A stretch of 64,000 nt of DNA from Polyangiales bacterium (lineage in GTDB: Bacteria; Myxococcota_A; Polyangia; Polyangiales; Ga0077539). The notes under the pieces were generated by a model. It saw nothing but the letters and a program-made list of their open reading frames with translations. It had not been told where the DNA came from and ran no database searches. The stretch covers positions 32,001-96,000 of the forward strand of contig JBGARZ010000006.1 of NCBI GenBank assembly GCA_044229975.1, read 5' to 3'. This document shows positions 3,101-59,345 of this stretch, in pieces; the stretch's first letter is position 1, and every line of letters begins with the position of its first letter. The translations under genes and the position numbers were made by a program.

Positions 3101-6094
3101 ATGAGATCACGTCACGTCTGGATTGTTCTGTCGGCCACGCTCGTCGCCATCGCGGGCTGTGATGGTCGAGCGTTGCTCGGTCCACCGACGGTGTCCGGTG
3201 ACGCGGCGGCTGACGTCACCACGCTCACCGACCTTCCGGCCCCCGACGGCGGCAACGACGTCACCACGCCGACCGACGTCCAGCGCACCGACGTCGCCAC
3301 CGACAGCGGCACGGATGGCGGCCTCGTGTGCGGCGCGGGGGAGACCCGCTGCGGCAGCGCGTGCGTCGACGTCGCCAGCGACCCCGCCAACTGCGGCGCG
3401 TGCGCCAACGCCTGTACCGCGGGTCAGGTGTGCAACGCCGGGGCGTGCGCGACGACCTGCGGCGCGGGCCTGAGCGCGTGCAGCGGCGCGTGCGTCGACC
3501 TCGGGTCGAGCAACGACCACTGCGGCGCGTGCGGCACCGCCTGCGCGGGCGGGACGAGCTGTAGCGCGGGCGTCTGCGTGTGCCCGGCGGGGACCACCCG
3601 CTGCGGCAGCGCGTGCGTCGACCTCGCCAGCGACCCGACCCACTGCGGCGCCTGCGCGACCGCGTGCACCGCGGGCCAGGTGTGCTCCTCGGGCGCGTGC
3701 GGCGCGACCTGCGCGACGGGCCTCACGGCGTGCAGCGGCGCGTGCGTCGACACCCGCAGCGACTCGTCGCACTGCGGCGGCTGCGGCGTGACCTGCACCG
3801 GCGGAACGAGCTGCGTCGGGGGTGGATGCGCGTGCCCGGCGGGGACGACCCGCTGCGGCGATCGCTGCGTCGACCTCACCTCCAGCGGCACCGACTGCGG
3901 CGCGTGCGGGACGGCCTGCGCGACGGCCCAGGTGTGCGCCGCGGGCGTGTGCGCGACGACCTGCCCGGCCGGGCGCCTCGCCTGCGGCCGCGACTGCATC
4001 GACGTGGGCTCCGACGCCGCCAACTGCGGCGCGTGCGGGGTGCGCTGCGCCGGCGGATCGACCTGCGTCGCGGGCACCTGCGCCTGCCCGACGGGCCAGA
4101 CGCTGTGCTCGGGCGTGTGCGTCGACCTGCGCACCGACCCCGCCCACTGCGGCGCGTGCGGGACGACCTGCGCGGCGGGCCAGGCCTGCGGCGCGGGCAT
4201 GTGCGGATCGACCTGCGCGGCGGGCACCACGGCGTGCGCGGGCTCGTGCGTCGACACGCGCACCGACGCGGCCAACTGCGGCGGTTGTGGCGTCGCGTGC
4301 ACCGGCGGGACGGCCTGTGTGGCAGGCACCTGCGGCTGCCCGATGGGGCAGATGGCGTGCGGCGGGATGTGCGTCGACACGCGCGCCAGCAACATCCACT
4401 GCGGCTCGTGCGGCAACCGCTGCGCGCCGGGGACGTTCTGCGCCAACGGCGGGTGCGCGTGCAACGAGGGGACGACCAACTGCGCGGGCATCTGCTCCGA
4501 CCTGCGGACCAACCCCGCCCACTGCGGAGCGTGCGGCAACGCGTGCGCCGCGGGGCAGGCGTGCAGCGGCGGCGCGTGCACTGCGACCTGCTCGACCGGG
4601 CTCACCCGCTGCGGCGGCGCCTGCGTCGACACGCAGAGCGACCGCGCCAACTGCGGCGCCTGCGGGACGGCCTGCACCGGCGGAACGGTGTGCAGCCTCG
4701 GGGCGTGCGTGTGTGATCCGGGGCGCACCAACTGCGGCGGCACCTGCGTCGATGCGCAGAGCGATCCGGCCAACTGCGGCGCCTGCGGGCGCGCGTGCGC
4801 GGCGGGCCAGACCTGCTCGGCGGGCGCCTGCGCGGCGGCCTGCGCGGTGGGCCTCACCAACTGCGCGGGCGCCTGCGTCGACCTGTCGAGCAACGGAACG
4901 AGCTGCGGGATGTGCGGTCGCACCTGCACCGGCGGCACCCGCTGCGTGACCGGCGCGTGCCAGTGTCCGGCGGGCCAGAGCAACTGCGGCGGGACGTGCG
5001 TGAGCCAGCAGAGCGATCCGGCCAACTGCGGCGGCTGCGGAACGCGCTGCGGCGCCGGGCGGGTGTGCTCCTTCGGGGTGTGCCTGATGGGCTGCGTTCC
5101 GGGGCAGACCCAGTGCGGCGGCGGGTGCTTCTTCACGCAGGTCGACGAGCGCAACTGCGGCGGCTGCGGCATCGCCTGCAACGCGGGTCAGACCTGCATC
5201 AACAGCCGGTGCCAGTGCCCGGCGGGCCAGACCCTCTGCGGCGGGGTGTGCGTCGACACGCGCACCAACAGCGCCAACTGCGGCGCGTGCGGGACCGCCT
5301 GCATGACCAACCAGCTCTGCTCGGGCGGCGTCTGCGGCGTGACGTGTCCGACGGGCAGCACGGCCTGCGGCGGCGCCTGCGTCGACACCCGCTCCAACGA
5401 CCGCAACTGCGGCGGCTGCGGCGTCGTCTGCACCGGCGGGTCGGCCTGCACCGCGGGCGCCTGCGCGTGCCCGGCGGGCAGCGCCCTGTGCAGCGGCCGC
5501 TGCGTCAACCTCCGCACCGACGCGCTCAACTGCGGCGCGTGCGGGACGGCGTGCACCGGCGGCGCGACCTGCACCGCGGGCGTGTGCGCGTGCCCGACGG
5601 GGCAGACCCGCTGCGGCGCCACCTGCGTCAACACGCAGACCAGCAACGCCAACTGCGGCGCTTGTGGGACGGCCTGCCCGGCCGGCCAGGCGTGCACCGC
5701 CGGGGCCTGCGTGGCGGCCTGCCCGATGGGCCAGACCCGCTGCGGAACCACCTGCGTCAACACCGGCACCGACGAGGCCAACTGCGGCGCGTGCGGCAGC
5801 ACCTGCGCGGGCACCTGCATGGGCGGTCGCTGCACGTGTCCCCTCGGCGAGCAGCTCTGCGGCGGTCGCTGCGTGGGCGTCATCGACGACCCGACCAACT
5901 GCGGGATGTGCGGTCGCGCGTGCCCGACGGGGCAGGCGTGCGTGGCCGGCTTCTGCACGGCGCGCTGCTTCATCCCGGGGCAGACGCTCTGCAACTCGAT
6001 GTGCGTCAACACGCAGGTCGACGCGGCCAACTGCGGGACGTGCAGCAACCGCTGCCCGGGCACCCAGATCTGCCGCGGGGGGATGTGCCGATGA
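3101..6094 (+). CDS. Lipoprotein made of 22 Cys-rich repeats (STIG1/MXAN_6577-like, C.D...D..NCG.CG..C)
   Basis: Lipobox IAGC after ATG 3101. I counted 22 [NHDS]CGxC units of about 42 aa. Confidence 0.85.
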   Translation: MRSRHVWIVLSATLVAIAGCDGRALLGPPTVSGDAAADVTTLTDLPAPDGGNDVTTPTDVQRTDVATDSGTDGGLVCGAGETRCGSACVDVASDPANCGACANACTAGQVCNAGACATTCGAGLSACSGACVDLGSSNDHCGACGTACAGGTSCSAGVCVCPAGTTRCGSACVDLASDPTHCGACATACTAGQVCSSGACGATCATGLTACSGACVDTRSDSSHCGGCGVTCTGGTSCVGGGCACPAGTTRCGDRCVDLTSSGTDCGACGTACATAQVCAAGVCATTCPAGRLACGRDCIDVGSDAANCGACGVRCAGGSTCVAGTCACPTGQTLCSGVCVDLRTDPAHCGACGTTCAAGQACGAGMCGSTCAAGTTACAGSCVDTRTDAANCGGCGVACTGGTACVAGTCGCPMGQMACGGMCVDTRASNIHCGSCGNRCAPGTFCANGGCACNEGTTNCAGICSDLRTNPAHCGACGNACAAGQACSGGACTATCSTGLTRCGGACVDTQSDRANCGACGTACTGGTVCSLGACVCDPGRTNCGGTCVDAQSDPANCGACGRACAAGQTCSAGACAAACAVGLTNCAGACVDLSSNGTSCGMCGRTCTGGTRCVTGACQCPAGQSNCGGTCVSQQSDPANCGGCGTRCGAGRVCSFGVCLMGCVPGQTQCGGGCFFTQVDERNCGGCGIACNAGQTCINSRCQCPAGQTLCGGVCVDTRTNSANCGACGTACMTNQLCSGGVCGVTCPTGSTACGGACVDTRSNDRNCGGCGVVCTGGSACTAGACACPAGSALCSGRCVNLRTDALNCGACGTACTGGATCTAGVCACPTGQTRCGATCVNTQTSNANCGACGTACPAGQACTAGACVAACPMGQTRCGTTCVNTGTDEANCGACGSTCAGTCMGGRCTCPLGEQLCGGRCVGVIDDPTNCGMCGRACPTGQACVAGFCTARCFIPGQTLCNSMCVNTQVDAANCGTCSNRCPGTQICRGGMCR

Positions 6095-20768: not shown

Positions 20769-21701
20769 ATGCGCCCCATCGGTCTCGCGCTCCTCGCTCC
20801 GACGCTCGTCCTCGCCTGCGCTTCGGCGCAGCGTCCCACTGCCTCACAGCCCGCGCCGCGCTTTCTCCGCGTCACCGAAGGGACCACCCTCCGAACGCGC
20901 GCGGACGACGGCGCGCCCGGCGTGACCGTCGCGGGCGGGGCGACGTTTCGGCGGGTGCGGGCGCGCGGTGAGTGGGTCGAGGTGGAGACGCTCGCGGGGT
21001 CGCGGCAGTGTGTTCCGGTGCTGCGAACGCCGCGCGGGATGCGGCTGCGGTTCTTCGTGCGGGCGTCGTCGGTGGGGCCGGTGCTGGCGTCGTCGATGAG
21101 CGCGTCGGGGCCGCAGGGGTCCCTCGCCATCGAGCCCGGTGTCGCAGTGCGAGAGGGCGCGGAGCTCGTTCATGCGGGGCTGCGGCTCACGCTGGCGAGC
21201 GCGCCGACGACGGCGATGGATCACCCCGCGCCGCAGACACTTCGCGTGGAGCCGAGCGCCGAGCGACTGGCGCCGGGCACGCGGGCGACGCTCCCGGAGG
21301 GAGCGCGCGTGGAGGTGGGGCGCGACGTTCCGGTGTACGTGCGGTCGCGGCGGGCGACGGGGGATGGCGCGCGGGTGACGGTGGCGACGCCGTGTGTGCG
21401 CTTCGAGGCGGTGGTTCCGGCGGAGGCGGTGCTGCCCGCGATGGAGCTCGAAATGGAAGACCGCGGTGACGAGCCGGCGGGCGCGCGGTGGGTGGTGCGC
21501 GAGGGGGCGCGGCTGCGCTGGGCGGACGGGAGTCCGGCGGGGCGCGCGACGGCGGCGACGCGGCTCAGCGACGAGGGAAGGGCGAGCGAGGGGGCGCGGT
21601 GCTTCCGGGTTCCGCTGCGGATGGTGGGCGGGGTGCCGGGCACGGCCGCGGTGGAGGCCGAGGTGTGCGCGGCAGAGGCGGACGTCGCGCGGGTGGAGTG
21701 A
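20769..21701 (+). CDS. Hypothetical lipoprotein
   Basis: Lipobox VLAC and a beta-rich body. Confidence 0.6.
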
Positions 21702-22346
21702 GCGTGAAGGTCATCGGACGCAACGATCCGTGCCCGTGCGGCAGCGGGAAGAAATACAAGAAGTGCTGCACGCCGAAGTTCGACCCGGCGCCGACGCAGA
21801 GCCGCGGGGAACTCGGGCCCGACGGGAAGTCCTGGCAGGGCAACGTCTCCAAGGACAACGCGCAGACGTTTCGCGAGAGCTCGCGGTCGAACGATGCCGC
21901 GCGCGCTGATCGAGGTGGTCGACGCGCACAGCCACCTGATGGAGGCGAACGAAGGCGGCGCCGAGGTGGCGATCTTTGCGAGCGCGGAGTTCGTGCTCAG
22001 CGACCCGGTGGCGGCGATCGCGGCGTTGCGGGCACGGGCGCCCGAGCTCGACCTGAACGAAGGGGCGGAGGGAGTGGCGTTCGAGTTCACGCAGCCGTCG
22101 AAGCCGGGGCAGCGGTCGCCGCTCAGCCGCATCGAGGGGCGTCGAGTGCAGGGGCTGGTGACGATCGAGGGCAACAGCCTTCTCGCGACCAGCGGCGCGC
22201 TCAGCATGGCGGCGAAGCTGATCGACGCCGTGCTGGAGGCGCTGCCCGAGCGCCCGCAGCTGGAGAGCGTCGTGTGGACGAGCCCGACGCTGTCGCGGGA
22301 GTGGTCATGGCGAGCCGCGGACGAGCCGCTCGCGATGCATTGGTGA
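21698..22346 (+). pseudogene. SEC-C motif protein, apparently frameshifted near 21870-21895
   Basis: GTG 21698 gives [18 protein letters not shown]. That frame degenerates into Arg/Gly off-frame sequence, while a protein-like frame runs 21894-22346. Confidence 0.55.
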
Positions 22347-22386
22347 CTGGAAGATGGCGGGTGAGGCGGGCGGCGGTGGGCTGGGA

Positions 22387-22482
22387 GCCGGGGTTCACCG
22401 TGCAGGCTCTGCGCTCGTCGGGCTCGGTTCACCCCGGGCAATGGCAGGGGGTCACCCCATCGCTTTGCGATGGGGTTGCAGG
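22387..22482. repeat. Family-A REP-like arm (left), 96 bp, inverted to 23043-23138
   Basis: 92/96 identical to the reverse complement of 23043-23138. Internal hairpins CCGGGG..CCCCGG and ACCCCATCGC-TTT-GCGATGGGGT. Confidence 0.95.
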
Positions 22483-22494
22483 CAGCAGAGGCCG

Positions 22495-22947
22495 CTACTT
22501 CACGGCCAGTTTATCGCCGGTTGTTGGTGTGGGAGATGGGGGACGGCATCGCTCCCACTCGACGAGGGTTGTTCCGTCGGCATGGTGACGTCGCTGGTCG
22601 ACGATGTATCGCTGAACGACCTCCAGTTCCGAGTCACGAACCGAAAAGACTCCGTAGCCCGCCTGCCACGCGAAGCCGTCGACGTGGAGGGTGCGGGAGA
22701 TGAAGGAGGACGTGACGACCTTCAGGTCACGTACCAGGTCGGCCACGCTCGTCGTGGTGTGGAGTCCCACCAGCACATGAACGTGATCCTCGACGCCTCC
22801 GACCGCGATCGGCACGCAGTCCCGACCGCGGCAAAGGCGGCCAAGGAGCCCGTGAACGCGCGCCGCTCGCAGCGTGTCGAGCACCGCCCTCCGCCCCTTC
22901 GTCGCCCACACCAGATGAACATACAACCGCGCGTACACTGCACTCAT
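22495..22947 (-). CDS. tnpA: IS200/IS605-family HUH-Y1 transposase
   Basis: [15 protein letters not shown] (HUH), [10 protein letters not shown] and YIVDQRRHH (catalytic Tyr). Confidence 0.95.
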
Positions 22948-23042
22948 GACGCGCTATCGAGTTGACCGCGTCGGAGGTTGAGCCGCGCCCGCATTTCGGT
23001 GCGCCCCACCAATCTCTGCACGGAGACAGACCTCCGCCTTCC

Positions 23043-23138
23043 CCTGCAACCCCATCGCGGAGCGATGGGGTGACCCCCTACCATTGCCCGGGGTGAACCG
23101 AGCCCGACGAGCGCAGAGCCTGTACGGTGAACCCCGGC
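23043..23138. repeat. Family-A REP-like arm (right)
   Basis: Reverse complement of 22387-22482 with 4 mismatches. Confidence 0.95.
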
Positions 23139-23153
23139 CCTCCGCCGCTACCG

Positions 23154-24875
23154 CTACCGCGGCCGCGGGTTGCGGTACACCGATACGATCGGCACCCCAT
23201 CGTGCACGGCCACGTAGGCCGTCGCAGGTGAGTCGTAGGCCGTCCAGATCTGATAATCGACTTCGTTCATGTGCAGCTCGTGGTGCACGATGGCGAAGAC
23301 CCCTTCGCCCACCTGCCACACCGGGTGCATGTCCGTTCGCAATCGCCCGTCGCGCTGCAACATCTCGAAGGCGCGCGGCGTCGTGTCGTGGATGTACACG
23401 CCCGCGTTCTGCTCCGGTTGTCGGTTGAACCACTCCGTCAACGAGCCCGTCGTGAAGCCCCAGAATTGTCGGTTGAGGCCCATGTCGGCCGCGCCCGGCG
23501 CGCCGCCCGCGATGGGGGTGTAGTTGCTCAACCCGAACGGATGCGAGTGCGCGCTCTGCGCGATCGGCGGCAGCACCACCAGCGCCCCGAGCACCGCCGT
23601 CACCACGCCCTCGCGCTTCACCCGATCGCGCAGCAGCTCTTCCAACAACGCCGCGACCTTGGTGAAGGCCACGCCCGCAAACAGGGCGAGGAAGGGGTAC
23701 GCGGGAAACCAGTGCTTGGTTCCGCCGAAGATGGGGGTGTTGCGCGAGAGCCACGGCGCCATCGGCACCATGAACCCCAGAAACACCAGCGACCACGTCC
23801 CGCGCGGGTCGTCGCTCTTCTGCGCGTCGGCCCACGCGCGGACGCGCTTGATGGGCAGCCACCCGAAGAGCCCGCTCGACTCCCGCAGCATGGTCGGGAA
23901 CATCACGATGAACCCGATGAGCGCGAGCAGCAGGGTGATGCCCGGCACCGTGAAGAGCATCATCCCCCACGAGTACATTCGCGGAAACGGCGGATGAAAC
24001 CAGTTATATCCCATCCACTCCATGTTGTAATAGGCGTGGTGGAGGTGGAAGCCCGCGTACTCCTGAAAGCGCCCCGGTCCGCCCGCGGGCGTCGAGAGGG
24101 TGTCGAACCACATCCACGGCCACAGCGCGACGAACACCAGCGGCCCCAGCACCGCCATGGAGATGAGCCCGAGCGGAACCGGGAAGTTTCCGCGCGCCGC
24201 GTCGCGCCGCATGTCTCCAGCGCGGGTGAGCACGAAGTGCGTCACCACGAGAAACGGCACAAACCACGCGTTGTGCTTGGTCTCCAGCGCGAGGCCCCAG
24301 GCGAGCCCGGTGGCGAGGGCCCAACCGATACCGCCCGAGAGCGACCGCCAATAGGCGTACAGCACCACGACCCACATGGTCATGACGGGCACGTCGAAGC
24401 AGTCGAGGTGAGCGTTGTAGAAAACCCGCGGCATGAAGGCGAGGGAGATGGCCGCGATGAGCCCCGCGCGGGTCGAGTGCGCGCGGTGTCCGAAGATGAA
24501 CGTCACCCACACCCCGAGCGCGCTCATCACCATTCCAGGGAAGCGGAAGCTCAGGCCCTCGGAGGTGATCCAATGCCACTTGTTGTGGAGGAAGAGCCAT
24601 GACAGTCCGAAGAGCGACTTCATGAGCGAGGGGTGTTCGTGGTTGGCCTGCCACGCGCCGTCGATGGCGCCGCGGGTGAGCGCCTCGCGGCGGTTGTGCA
24701 GCAGCAGGTCGAACCAGTTGGCGTAGGAGGTCGCCGCGTCGAAGTAGAAGCCCTCGTCGCGGGCGTAGCCCAGCGTGCGCGCCGTGCGCACCAGCACGAT
24801 GAGGTACACGAGCGCCAGCAGCGCACCGAGGCAATGTGGCTTGAGCGCCGTCCAGAGGCGTTGGGCGCGCGTCAT
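23154..24875 (-). CDS. GT-C superfamily glycosyltransferase (ArnT/PMT_2, GT39/83-like)
   Basis: RDEGFY and EHPSL motifs, and multiple TM helices. Confidence 0.85.
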   Translation of the reverse strand: MTRAQRLWTALKPHCLGALLALVYLIVLVRTARTLGYARDEGFYFDAATSYANWFDLLLHNRREALTRGAIDGAWQANHEHPSLMKSLFGLSWLFLHNKWHWITSEGLSFRFPGMVMSALGVWVTFIFGHRAHSTRAGLIAAISLAFMPRVFYNAHLDCFDVPVMTMWVVVLYAYWRSLSGGIGWALATGLAWGLALETKHNAWFVPFLVVTHFVLTRAGDMRRDAARGNFPVPLGLISMAVLGPLVFVALWPWMWFDTLSTPAGGPGRFQEYAGFHLHHAYYNMEWMGYNWFHPPFPRMYSWGMMLFTVPGITLLLALIGFIVMFPTMLRESSGLFGWLPIKRVRAWADAQKSDDPRGTWSLVFLGFMVPMAPWLSRNTPIFGGTKHWFPAYPFLALFAGVAFTKVAALLEELLRDRVKREGVVTAVLGALVVLPPIAQSAHSHPFGLSNYTPIAGGAPGAADMGLNRQFWGFTTGSLTEWFNRQPEQNAGVYIHDTTPRAFEMLQRDGRLRTDMHPVWQVGEGVFAIVHHELHMNEVDYQIWTAYDSPATAYVAVHDGVPIVSVYRNPRPR

Positions 24876-35401: not shown

Positions 35402-35536
35402 GAGCGCCCACTACGCGGTTGCGGACGGCCCGCGAGCGGGCCTGCAACCGCTGAAGTGGGAGCCTGGAGCTGGGCGTCCCGCCTGCGCGGGACTTCCTGG
35501 CGGCGCGTCGAGCGCTGGAGCGCTCGACGAGAAGGT
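35402..35536. repeat. Family-C REP-like arm (left), 135 bp, inverted to 35994-36128
   Basis: 131/135 identical to the reverse complement of the right arm, with three internal hairpins. Confidence 0.95.
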
Positions 35537-35543
35537 CATGGGG

Positions 35544-35954
35544 TCACGCCGGTAGTTCTCGTCGAGGGTCGTGAGTGTTGTTCGCGTGGTGCCGCGGCTG
35601 ATCGCGGATGTACGCGGCGAGCGAGTCGACGTCCGAGTGGTCGACGCTGAAGAGCGCGTACCCCTCGCTCCAGGCGTAGGACGAGTCGACGCCCAGCTCG
35701 GCGTGGGCGACGTGCGATGAGACGCCCTTGAGGTGACGGACGAGATCGGAAGGAGCCAGCGTGGGCGGAGCTCGGACGAGCACGTGGACGTGTTCGCTGA
35801 CGCCACCCACCTCGACGAACGAGCAGCCCTGCTTTCGCGCGACCGATGCCACCACCGCGTGCAGGTGGGGTTGGATGGCGGCGTCGATCCACGGGTGCCG
35901 GTCCCAGGTGCTCCAGATGAAGTGCAGGTACAGCTCGATGTGGCGATGAAACAT
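35544..35954 (-). CDS. tnpA: IS200/IS605-family HUH-Y1 transposase
   Basis: LYLHFIWSTWDR, EHVHVL, LKGVSS, WSEGYALFSV and YIRDQPRHH motifs. Confidence 0.95.
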   Translation of the reverse strand: MFHRHIELYLHFIWSTWDRHPWIDAAIQPHLHAVVASVARKQGCSFVEVGGVSEHVHVLVRAPPTLAPSDLVRHLKGVSSHVAHAELGVDSSYAWSEGYALFSVDHSDVDSLAAYIRDQPRHHANNTHDPRRELPA

Positions 35955-35993
35955 GTCGGGTGTCGTGCCGAGTTCCAATAGGGTTGCGCCTGC

Positions 35994-36128
35994 ACCCTCC
36001 CGTCGAGCGCTCCAGCGCTCGACGCGCCGCCAGGAAGTCCCGCGCAGGCGGGACGTCCAGCTCCAGGCTCCCACTTCAGCGGTTGCAGGCCCGCTCGCGG
36101 GCCGTCCGCAACCGCGCAGTGGGCGCTC
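35994..36128. repeat. Family-C REP-like arm (right)
   Basis: Reverse complement of 35402-35536 with 4 mismatches. Confidence 0.95.
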
Positions 36129-48358: not shown

Positions 48359-48622
48359 TCGCGCAGCGGGCCGGGGTTCACGGTGCAGGCTCCGCGTCCG
48401 TCGCGCTCCGTTCACCGCCGGGCAATGGTAGGGGGTCACCCCGCCGCTGCGCGACGGGGTTGCAGGTCCAGATCCATCGCGATCCCGGTCGACGAAGTGG
48501 AGGCAGTGACATCCGCTGCAACCCCGTCGCGCAGCGGCGGGGTGACCCCCTACCATTGCCCGGCGGTGAACGGAGCGCGACGGACGCGGAGCCTGCACCG
48601 TGAACCCCGGCCCACTGCGCGA
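48359..48622. mobile_element. Non-autonomous REPIN-like doublet of family A (107-bp arms, 50-bp spacer)
   Basis: Arms 48359-48465 and 48516-48622 are reverse complements with 1 mismatch and are homologous to the arms flanking tnpA at 22495-22947. Confidence 0.9.
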
Positions 48623-55928: not shown

Positions 55929-56061
55929 ATGAGCGAACCAACGCCCATCACTGGTTGGCACGACTCCGCGCGGGTTGGCCAAATTCCCATGGATGCGAAG
56001 CGCTGTCTGTGGTTGGCGCGCATCGAGAGTTCCGCCGCGCCCACAAGGGGAGCTCACTGGC
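55929..56061. repeat. Direct repeat copy 1 (~133 bp)
   Basis: Aligns to 57451-57584 with 8 substitutions and 1 indel. Confidence 0.95.
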
Positions 56062-57450: not shown

Positions 57451-57584
57451 ATAAGCGAGCCAACGCCCTACCACTGGTTGGCACGACTCCGCGCGGGTTG
57501 ACCCAACTCCCATGGATGCGAAGCGCTGTCTGTCGTTGGCGCGCATCGAGAGTTCCGCCGCGCCCACAAGGGGAGCTCGCTGGC
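57451..57584. repeat. Direct repeat copy 2 (~134 bp)
   Basis: Aligns to 55929-56061. Confidence 0.95.
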
Positions 57585-57620: not shown

Positions 57621-58754
57621 TCAGGGAATGCAGACGCGGTTGAAGGAGTCAGGGCTGCACCGCCCGCTGCAACACTGCGCGTCGCTCGTGCAGCTGCTGC
57701 GGTTCCCGAAGCAGCAGCGCCCGCCCTCGCAGTTGCCACCGGCGGACCGCAGGCATCCCGAGTGTTGAGTGCAGGCCGCCCCGAGCCCGCCTCCGCAACG
57801 ATCGCCGAAGAGCATCCCGCCCACCGAGCCGCACGTCCGCCCGGCGGCACAGCACGTGGGCGGGACCCCTCCTGCCGTGTGGGTGCAGAACTCGCTCTCC
57901 CCCCACACGCACGCCGTCCGGCAGCCGCCCGCGTTGCACTCCTGGCCGCCCGCGCAGGCGCTGCCGCAGGCGCCGCAGTGGGCCGCGTTCGTCCGGGTGT
58001 CCACGCACGCCCCGGCGCACGCCGTCTGCCCGCTTGGGCAGAGCACGCACGCGCCCGCGACGCACACCCGCCCCGCCGCGCACGCGGCCCCGCACGCGCC
58101 GCAGTGGGCGGTGGTGGTCGCGAGCGTCACCTCGCAGCCGTTGGCGAGCGTGCCGTCGCAGCTCGCGTAGCCGGGCATGCATGCCACCGTGCATGCGCCA
58201 CCGCCGCACACGGGCGAGGCGTTGGCAGCCGAGGGGCACGCGACACCGCAGCAGTTGCCCGGTGTCGTGGCAGCGCACCCGGCCGGCAGCACGTCGGCGC
58301 CCGAACCGGCGTCGACGGGCGGTCCCACGTCCGGCGTGCCGACGTCCGGGGCGCCCGTGTCCGGCCCGCCCACGTCGGGCGCGGGACTCCCGGTGTCGGT
58401 CGCAGGAACGCCGGTGTCGACGAGCGGACTGCCTGTGTCGGTCGCGTCCGCGTCGATCACGCCCGCGTCGATCGCAGGACCACCCGTGTCAGGCGCTACC
58501 GCGGCATCGCCCGCATCCGCGGCGTCCATCCCGCCCGCGTCCCCGCCGCACTGGCAGGCGCCGTATGTCCGGTCTGCCTGGCAGACCTGCACGCTGCTGG
58601 CGCCGCCGGGGCACCCGCAGGTGATCTGGGTGCCCTGCACGCAGCCCGACGAGGGCAGCGGCACCGGGTCCGTCGGGCAGCCCGTGGGCAGCGCCGCCGC
58701 CGCCAGCATCCCCACCAAGTTGTTCGGGCGCCCACCCTTCGCCACCGTCTTCAT
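57621..58754 (-). CDS. Cys-rich secreted or lipo-protein with DTG/DVG linker and STIG1-like repeats
   Basis: C.CPGG..S.Q.C N-module, a DxG linker, and NGCE and HCGACG..C repeats. Confidence 0.75.
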   Translation of the reverse strand: MKTVAKGGRPNNLVGMLAAAALPTGCPTDPVPLPSSGCVQGTQITCGCPGGASSVQVCQADRTYGACQCGGDAGGMDAADAGDAAVAPDTGGPAIDAGVIDADATDTGSPLVDTGVPATDTGSPAPDVGGPDTGAPDVGTPDVGPPVDAGSGADVLPAGCAATTPGNCCGVACPSAANASPVCGGGACTVACMPGYASCDGTLANGCEVTLATTTAHCGACGAACAAGRVCVAGACVLCPSGQTACAGACVDTRTNAAHCGACGSACAGGQECNAGGCRTACVWGESEFCTHTAGGVPPTCCAAGRTCGSVGGMLFGDRCGGGLGAACTQHSGCLRSAGGNCEGGRCCFGNRSSCTSDAQCCSGRCSPDSFNRVCIP

Positions 58755-59345
58755 GCTTGTGCCTCCGCCGTACTCGGTATCACGGGAAGCGGTTCGGTGA
58801 GATTGCCCTCCCTTCGGGCCGCGCGCGCTCGGGGCGACACTATCCCGGCGATCAACTCGCCGTCACCTGTTCAACCGACGCCACGTCAGGGCCCAGGGCG
58901 ATCATCGGCCGACCCGACCCCGACCTTTGGCCAATTTCGGCGAAGCATCGCCCACCCGTCGACGAAGCATCGGCCACTCATCGGCGAAGCATGGACCACC
59001 CGTCGGTGTCCCATCCTCCAACGATTGGCCTTCCTCGCATGCTCCGGCGTGCTGTCGTCGATGGCCGAGCGCTCGCCCGACCTCGCCGCCGAGCTTGAGA
59101 CGGTGGTCGACTTCATGGCCACCGGCCCGCGCAAGGAGCCCGCGACGCCCGCCCAGGGCTGAAGAGGTGTTGACTCGTCGTCGCACAGATCGCGGAGCAC
59201 GCGCTCGCGCTCTACCGAGAGCTCGGAGTCGTCGACGGGTACGTCGGGGGAAGCGATCGACGCGGCGTCGCGGCACGCGATACAACCGCTCGCATGTCCC
59301 CACGGGGTCGGAACCTGTCGATCGCCGGCGCGGCGTCCTAGCGCG

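Follow-up and report, generated by a model that had tools for sequence, protein, structure and literature searches.

Transposases of TnpA-Y1 subclass 1.2 carry the signature DHVH, WQ and Y---Q--HH (Quentin et al. 2018, PMC6006769). The subclass is tabulated there as "REP: no", and no row for it turned up when the supplementary REP table was searched. According to the same source, the split between subclasses 1.1 and 1.2 is absent from the classification of Bertels et al., and the 26 TIRYTs are spread over subclasses 2.1, 2.2 and 2.5, the first of which has a C-terminal HTH. For group 3 TnpA-REP, the guide positions are described as selecting the dinucleotide that is cut, GTAG specifying CT and GTGG specifying CC (PMC8266576). 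As far as these sources go, the architecture of the locus described here is already known from REPtrons and TIRtrons (Di Nocera 2013, PMC3733652), and an IS200 group has been termed RAYT-like (Bertels 2017, PMC5581495). Because the REPtron and TIRtron architecture is known, the importance of the locus is tempered.

The window, that is, the whole stretch of 64,000 nucleotides that was analysed, belongs to a genome (G000) of 10 Mb with about 71% G+C. At 22495..22947, on the minus strand, it carries tnpA-A, an intact gene for an HUH/Y1 protein of 150 amino acids with D54-H55-V-H57, W94-Q95 and Y114---Q118--H121-H122. All of the subclass 1.2 motifs (DH[IV]H, WQ and Y---Q--HH) were found in TnpA-A, together with the length, low copy number and divergent paralogs (three genes at 55-64% nucleotide identity) that mark this subclass, to which we assign it by motifs and length. 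In an alignment of 81 sequences (TnpA-A and 80 of its 98 homologs) the motifs for catalysis and metal binding vary little if at all: H55, H57, W94, Q95 and H122 are invariant, and Y114, Q118 and H121 are present in at least 90%. The subclass also has a C-terminal domain of its own, of ~30 aa. After the HH pair the consensus of this alignment, used here in place of the published profile, reads FxxExE, and TnpA-A differs there. Y1_Tnp is the sole Pfam domain. TnpA-A scores above the cut-off of the IS200 profile NF033573 (69.7 against 55 bits) and below that of the RAYT profile NF047646 (20.6 against 80 bits), and it has Y---Q--HH instead of Y---NP. The RAYT reading of the protein was thus not borne out, and membership in RAYT/TnpA-REP (class 2) was rejected. 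A structure model (pLDDT 93.9) matched the ISDra2 and IS608 TnpA folds best (E ~1e-8), with TnpA-REP 4ER8 lower (3e-6). The dN/dS of tnpA was 0.11-0.31 in all five pairs tested, and the best named homologs among the matches listed come from metagenome-assembled genomes of Polyangiales and "Deltaproteobacteria".

tnpA-A lies between two inverted arms, hereafter family A. The left arm (22387..22482, plus strand) is downstream of the gene and the right arm (23043..23138, plus strand) upstream; a conserved unit, described below, is read on the minus strand of the left arm and on the plus strand of the right arm, facing outward in both. The initial annotation had given the arms as 92/96 identical with two nested stems, and both statements held: blastn aligned 104 nt at 93% (E 7e-39), and DNA folding recovered an outer stem of CCGGGGT/ACCCCGG, an internal loop and ACCG/CGGT, and an inner stem of 10 bp, with z-scores between -2.1 and -3.5 for the four strands of the two arms. 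In the left arm the outer hairpin, H2, occupies 22388..22437 (7-bp foot, internal loop, 4-bp stem and variable apex) and the inner hairpin, H1, occupies 22454..22476 (10-bp stem, 3-nt loop). In the right arm folding placed H1 at 23049..23071, with the loop C-GGA-G on the plus strand, and H2 at 23088..23137. A GTAG in the H1-H2 linker of the right arm (23078..23081, minus strand, opposite to the conserved unit) and a GCAG in the left arm (22444-22447, plus strand) indeed stand 6 nt ahead of the inner stem, as had been noted.

A single Y1 ORF occupies the 560 nt between the arms, with a PMT_2 gene and a SEC-C ORF as neighbours; the locus therefore has no tnpB. Within 95 nt of the ends, direct repeats reach 7 nt at most, and the longest stands at distances that do not match; locus A is therefore without a target-site duplication; on both points the initial annotation was right. 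A scan of 22300-23250 found no promoter-like site and one terminator-like site, within the gene (shuffle mean 0.3). Rfam gave no gathering-level match in the window, with two chance hits on locus A. The SEC-C ORF, directly to the left (21698-22346), is apparently split over two frames. Further repeats in the window are a 118-nt direct repeat (55944-56061 and 57467-57584, 94% identical, 1.5 kb apart), a long array of 123/129-nt units at 3300-6064 that look like Cys-rich coding repeats, an inverted stretch related to this array at 57901-58124, and a short tandem repeat of 22 nt at 58937-59024.

Four Y1 genes are present in G000, three of which are of the TnpA-A type: A and B, both in the window, and C, at 47422-47850 on contig C34. 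Each is single-copy, they share 55-64% nucleotide identity, and each has its own type of inverted arm. The second unit in the window, locus B (35402..36128), has 135-nt inverted arms (35402-35536 and 35994-36128) around tnpA-B (35544..35954, minus strand), which encodes a 136-aa protein with Y---Q--HH that is 41% identical to TnpA-A over 120 aa. A blast catalogue of G000 seeded with four arm types comprised 191 arms, i.e. 89 pairs and 13 singles. Sixteen pairs belong to family A, 39 to C and 14 to B, each figure including one tnpA unit, and 20 to a family D; gene-less pairs thus number 15, 38 and 13 in A, C and B. In one A doublet the right arm is degenerate, and one pair of family B extends over 1.2 kb. 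A cognate tnpA for the 20 doublets of family D was not found in the 93%-complete G000 assembly. Doublets at C4:76694, C11:600432, C19:117306, C36:424126, C36:156171 and C32:718550 have arms like those that flank tnpA in G002/G005 and G001/G007, and no cognate gene for them was found in G000; judged by their sequences, they suggest gain and loss of enzyme-arm pairs. The fourth Y1 gene (C26:71016-71297; 163 aa with EHVH, WS and YVCDEHH) is enclosed by long inverted arrays of a tandem repeat, clusters of which are also found elsewhere, and by motif it resembles class 3 of Quentin.

The gene-less family-A doublets of G000 measure 237-244 bp each. The one in the window (48370..48611) consists of an arm, a spacer of ~51 nt and an inverted arm, and lies between two convergent genes. 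Spacers are inherited with the arms: the identity to the best partner is at least 70% in 11/15 A and 34/38 C doublets, with shuffled maxima of 0.65 and 0.68, respectively. The A spacers have no similarity to the interior of the tnpA unit. Since spacers are homologous among doublets and unrelated to that interior, the doublet is the unit that replicates. Arms of one element are also more alike than arms of different elements (95 vs 90% identity in A, 97 vs 86% in C, 97 vs 89% in D), the partner arm being nearest or tied for 21 of 32 A arms and 69 of 78 C arms. Departures from the family C consensus were found in both arms in 266 cases and in one arm in 93. By a crude in-house gene caller, on which all gene-context counts rest, convergent gene pairs host 9/16 A, 28/39 C and 7/14 B elements, against 1399 of 7559 adjacent pairs (18.5%) in the background; family D shows no such preference (3/20).

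Two sites were found empty elsewhere. In G001 and G005, the two of eight congeners that keep both neighbours of the window doublet (48370-48611) adjacent, its site is empty and the stop codons abut. A C doublet on contig C33 is missing from contigs of runs X2, X5 and X9 (three of four runs, three studies), which join across the site with 11 letters between the stops; in this single case, with strains about 8% apart, the left junction is compatible with C|T cutting on the ATAG strand and the right has one mismatch. When cut sites were inferred from the flank lengths that copies share, the ends came out ragged and no dinucleotide stood out clearly.

At locus A the picture is as follows. In 14 of 14 relatives (three of these loci being short) tnpA is absent downstream of the orthologous PMT gene. 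The search for empty orthologous sites that the initial annotation had proposed found no exact one among eight congeners, because seven of them have a kinase gene after the PMT gene. In G000 this kinase is about 56 kb away (C23:110506-112046), and by gene order locus A (window 23154) lies at a synteny break. A contig of run X2 carries the gene ending at 21701, followed directly by a C-type arm. No contig from the sequencing runs spans locus A, and the depth of run X2 falls to 5-7 over 21840-22307 and 22542-23009, a drop to which we give no weight. Seventeen public runs were listed with matching DNA, all with small shares, and no RNA run was among those listed. In G043 an arm-like sequence starts just past the PMT ortholog, and a 182-nt palindrome lies nearby in G044; this gene end may have been used repeatedly.

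We searched 31 genomes of the family for the arm pattern. At least ten matches were found in 11 of the 13 genomes that have a close tnpA (E <= 1e-30) and in none of the 18 that lack one, in a comparison where related genomes do not count as independent and where the pattern had been derived from arms next to such genes. Within the genus, genomes with a close tnpA have 26-145 arms and those without have 0-2. The exceptions are G044 and G045, with the gene and four and zero matches, and G018, G021 and G012, without a close tnpA and with nine, seven and six. Among the 49 of 50 loci of relatives that were listed, 37 have an inverted repeat, two of them from G000, a descriptive and control-free count.

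A broader set comprised 79 named loci, drawn from the best 80 of at least 553 confirmed stretches, from Planctomycetota, Verrucomicrobiota, Acidobacteriota, cyanobacteria, Chloroflexota, Armatimonadota, Bacteroidota and others; five short loci were left out, giving 74. The initial annotation had named homologous tnpA genes without such flanks as one part of what would speak against it. Inverted arms in fact flank 44 of the 74 homologs, from many phyla, and one of 125 control stretches; the other 30 homologs have none at the threshold used. Viral contigs gave 15 pattern matches, none of which was confirmed. The 627 plasmid records that matched are all below 60% identity (best E 4e-21).

Most of the 79 named loci share a unit that is read on one strand. 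In an unbiased scan for tandem hairpins (50.5 kb of flank) the trinucleotide before the second stem was TAG in 65 cases, CAG in 31 and AAG in 14, and in the control (41.8 kb) no trinucleotide occurred more than four times. A strict scan identified 121 H1-linker-NNAG-H2 units in 59/79 loci and one in 69 control loci, with TTAG (26) and GTAG (25) as the leading tetranucleotides. The H1 loop on the NNAG strand is C-GNA-G in 61 of the 121 units and C-TNC-G in none. GNA triloops are stable in DNA. The distance from the H1 apex to the H2 foot is 19-20 nt in 105 of the 121, and the units face inward in 32 loci and outward in six. Locus A departs from this cross-phylum unit in having TG in place of AG, a longer spacing (27 nt) and an outward direction.

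The positional equivalent of NNAG at locus A is an ATTG at the 5' foot of H2, in the left arm at 22439..22442 (minus strand) and in the right arm at 23083..23086 (plus strand). At this position 26/32 A arms read ATTG, and ATAG is found in 76/78 C and 35/40 D arms; from this alignment of positions, ATTG is the candidate guide of locus A. GTAG, to which the initial annotation had given this role, is probably not the guide: it occupies the linker, on the opposite strand, in 26 (and, shifted by one base, two more) of 32 A arms, and in none of the 78 C or 40 D arms (0/118), the position there being TCAG, TCAC or TCAA in C arms and TCAC in most D arms. As a general guide GTAG was rejected, being absent from C and D arms while NNAG is conserved on the other strand; within family A it may have a role.

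The REP-like reading of the locus holds, since pairs of the arms are found without a gene elsewhere in the genome and such arms also flank homologous genes in many phyla. We consider it probable that locus A is a REPtron/REPIN-like system on the IS200 branch, with TnpA-A as the source enzyme of the 15 doublets, working in the manner of a RAYT. It starts from observations, namely the anatomy of the locus, the population of doublets with their homologous spacers, two sites that are empty elsewhere, and the joint presence of gene and repeats from genome to genome. In the proposed mechanism the enzyme would bind the single-stranded unit H1-linker-ATTG-H2, and the inverted layout would offer one binding unit per strand. 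By analogy with TnpA-REP, Tyr114 may cut at a dinucleotide that the two final bases of the guide specify, which would be C|A for ATTG and C|T for the ATAG of family C. Cutting would occur at variable distances, which could leave ragged ends without target duplication. Strand transfer would then move the whole doublet to new sites, mostly between convergent gene ends, and during or after the move one arm would likely be re-copied from the other, by fold-back synthesis or by conversion in a long hairpin.

A wider version of this reading is put forward tentatively, as a possibility we would not yet call probable. Subclass 1.2 might represent a second, independent domestication of IS200 into a system that spreads REPINs and occurs in many phyla. 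Its enzymes would read a two-hairpin ruler of single-stranded DNA, with 19-20 nt between H1 apex and H2 foot in most phyla, and this ruler would be what Rfam lists as the orphan sRNA Acido-Lenti-1. In the myxobacterial branch the unit would have come to face outward and grown longer, with ATTG replacing NNAG as the guide and the cut shifting from C|T to C|A; every move would rebuild one arm from the other, and the doublets would at times be handed to DDE MITEs.

In an unlikely alternative, doublets spread mainly as MITE passengers moved by DDE transposases and tnpA only made the arms or travels along. Family D doublets have two fixed asymmetric tails of about 54 and 66 nt (e.g. C34:144670-144891), and target duplications of 7-10 bp lie at the fixed tail ends in 8/20 of them (null 14/380). 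Five of eight long-tailed A doublets have a 3-bp repeat (TCA/TGA/TTA), which in four of the eight is TCA on one strand, so that a TC|A target fits too. Some B copies are flanked by 9-bp duplications, and by eye 9-10 bp direct repeats surround two of the four tnpA units of G002. The duplications in D and the 3-bp repeats in A imply that part of the spread is DDE-like. Against this alternative, ends are ragged at locus A, at the window doublet, in short-tailed A copies and in most C copies, and direct repeats of at least 9 nt in C (7/39) are near the null rate of 10.6%. Repeat abundance, moreover, follows the presence of tnpA. Small MITEs without arms, their ends matching the tails of the D and B families (C32:914523-914743 and C33:219082-219195), bear on both sides of the question. 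That they exist at all lends the alternative some support, yet for the same reason arms must have entered MITEs by another route and then been amplified with them. The arm-less MITEs seem to be recurrent landing sites, and the arm-bearing ones were most likely amplified by DDE enzymes. The B-tail MITE also hosts other hairpin-doublet families (C10:155956, C33:4587). A cognate DDE element with matching ends was not found, in noisy motif searches and with PF01609 as the only family searched; the two PF01609 loci gave no flanking inverted repeat.

It is also improbable that tnpA and its arms form an autonomous IS with inverted hairpin ends, with the doublets as short-lived internal-deletion MITEs rather than domesticated REPINs. 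The protein does score as IS200 family, relatives do not share the site of locus A, and four of them have 2-4 near-identical copies of a tnpA unit (89-98% identity), namely G002, with four copies, G011, G005 and G016. Against this stand the single-copy tnpA genes of G000 beside 15 (A) and 38 (C) doublets, and the single close tnpA in each of G001 and G019 beside 145 and 100 arms. The A spacers do not resemble the interior of the tnpA unit, and an orthologous tnpA locus is shared by G001 and G007 (92% over 2760 nt). IS200/IS605 ends, as described in PMC8266576, act on one strand, which inverted arms do not give.

Least of all do we credit a role of the arms as RNA (terminators, stabilisers or the Acido-Lenti-1 sRNA) spread by recombination with an incidental tnpA: elements are enriched at convergent 3' ends and Rfam RF01687 matches arms in 2/20 homologous loci, on the strand opposite to NNAG, but inverted arm pairs bracket a transposase gene across phyla and track its presence, and the loop preference, C-GNA-G and never C-TNC-G, is seen on the NNAG strand. 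A secondary effect of the arms at the RNA level may exist.

On the REPtron-like reading, the arms would supply a substrate for a widespread, uncharacterised Y1 branch, and they contradict the published entry of no repeats for it. The way in which REPIN-like doublets replicate and keep their symmetry, unsettled even for canonical RAYTs, finds a natural test system here. As paralogous enzyme-arm pairs with different candidate guides (ATTG and ATAG) coexist in one genome, specificity and retargeting can be tested by swaps. The matches to Acido-Lenti-1 suggest that what has been classed as an abundant RNA family of unknown function serves as a recognition element in DNA. Our literature search, with most subscription papers outside its reach, found no description of such arms for subclass 1.2; the R. 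baltica transposases with flanking repeats that are mentioned in additional files of PMC3733652 may hold examples.

Among known systems, Acido-Lenti-1 (RF01687; Weinberg et al. 2010, PMC2864571) is matched above the gathering score by both arms at two of 20 loci, L131 and L151, and its seed sequences are the reverse complement of H1-NNAG-H2. It is described as an sRNA of unknown function, and it has no match in the window, whose arms are longer. With IS200/IS605 elements (IS608, ISDra2) locus A shares the fold, the catalytic core and a hairpin with a 5' tetranucleotide. Unlike these elements (subclass 1.1), which occur in multiple near-identical copies, have distinct left and right hairpin ends on one strand and often carry tnpB, it has no tnpB, is single-copy in G000 and ends in inverted, near-identical copies, which puts one unit on each strand. 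The IS200 Group 3 of Bertels et al. (2017, PMC5581495), as far as it is described there, is alike in lacking duplicates and plasmid copies and in its abundant flanking 16-mers, and is termed RAYT-like.

The TIRtron (Di Nocera et al. 2013, PMC3733652) also has a tyrosine transposase gene between long TIRs, some of them doubly palindromic, and TIR dimers dispersed elsewhere, and this is the layout found here. The TIRtron motif GGGGWSAS given in that source occurs in 30-31 of 32 A arms and in none of 40 D arms. TnpA-A, however, is a protein of 150 aa without a C-terminal HTH that scores above the IS200 cut-off, and it is neither a RAYT nor, by protein class, a TIRYT. It agrees with subclass 1.2 as published (PMC6006769) in motifs, length (150 aa here, about 148 there), low copy number and divergent paralogs. 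The long inverted two-hairpin arms, present at 44/74 homologs, and the dispersed gene-less doublets differ from the subclass as far as it is described there, with no REP or terminal structures.

The closest parallel in organisation is the REPtron, or RAYT-REPIN system, of E. coli TnpA-REP and Pseudomonas groups 2 and 3, as described in PMC3116915 and PMC8266576. Here as there, a single-copy HUH-Y1 gene lies between inverted hairpin repeats, and gene-less, extragenic inverted doublets with conserved arms and inherited spacers are dispersed and replicate as a unit; several enzyme-specific repeat types coexist per genome, and a tetranucleotide is found on one strand 5' of a hairpin foot. In textbook REPtrons the transposase unit does not multiply and passes vertically. 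The tnpA unit is single-copy in G000 and lies at an orthologous locus in G001/G007; four relatives have it in 2-4 near-identical copies, and relatives lack it at the site of locus A. Further differences from the REPtrons are the enzyme, which is on the IS200 side, the arms, which have two hairpins and 88-135 nt compared to 20-50 nt, and the tetranucleotide, which is NNAG across phyla and ATTG or ATAG at the H2 foot in G000 instead of the fixed GTAG 5' of the hairpin that RAYTs recognise.
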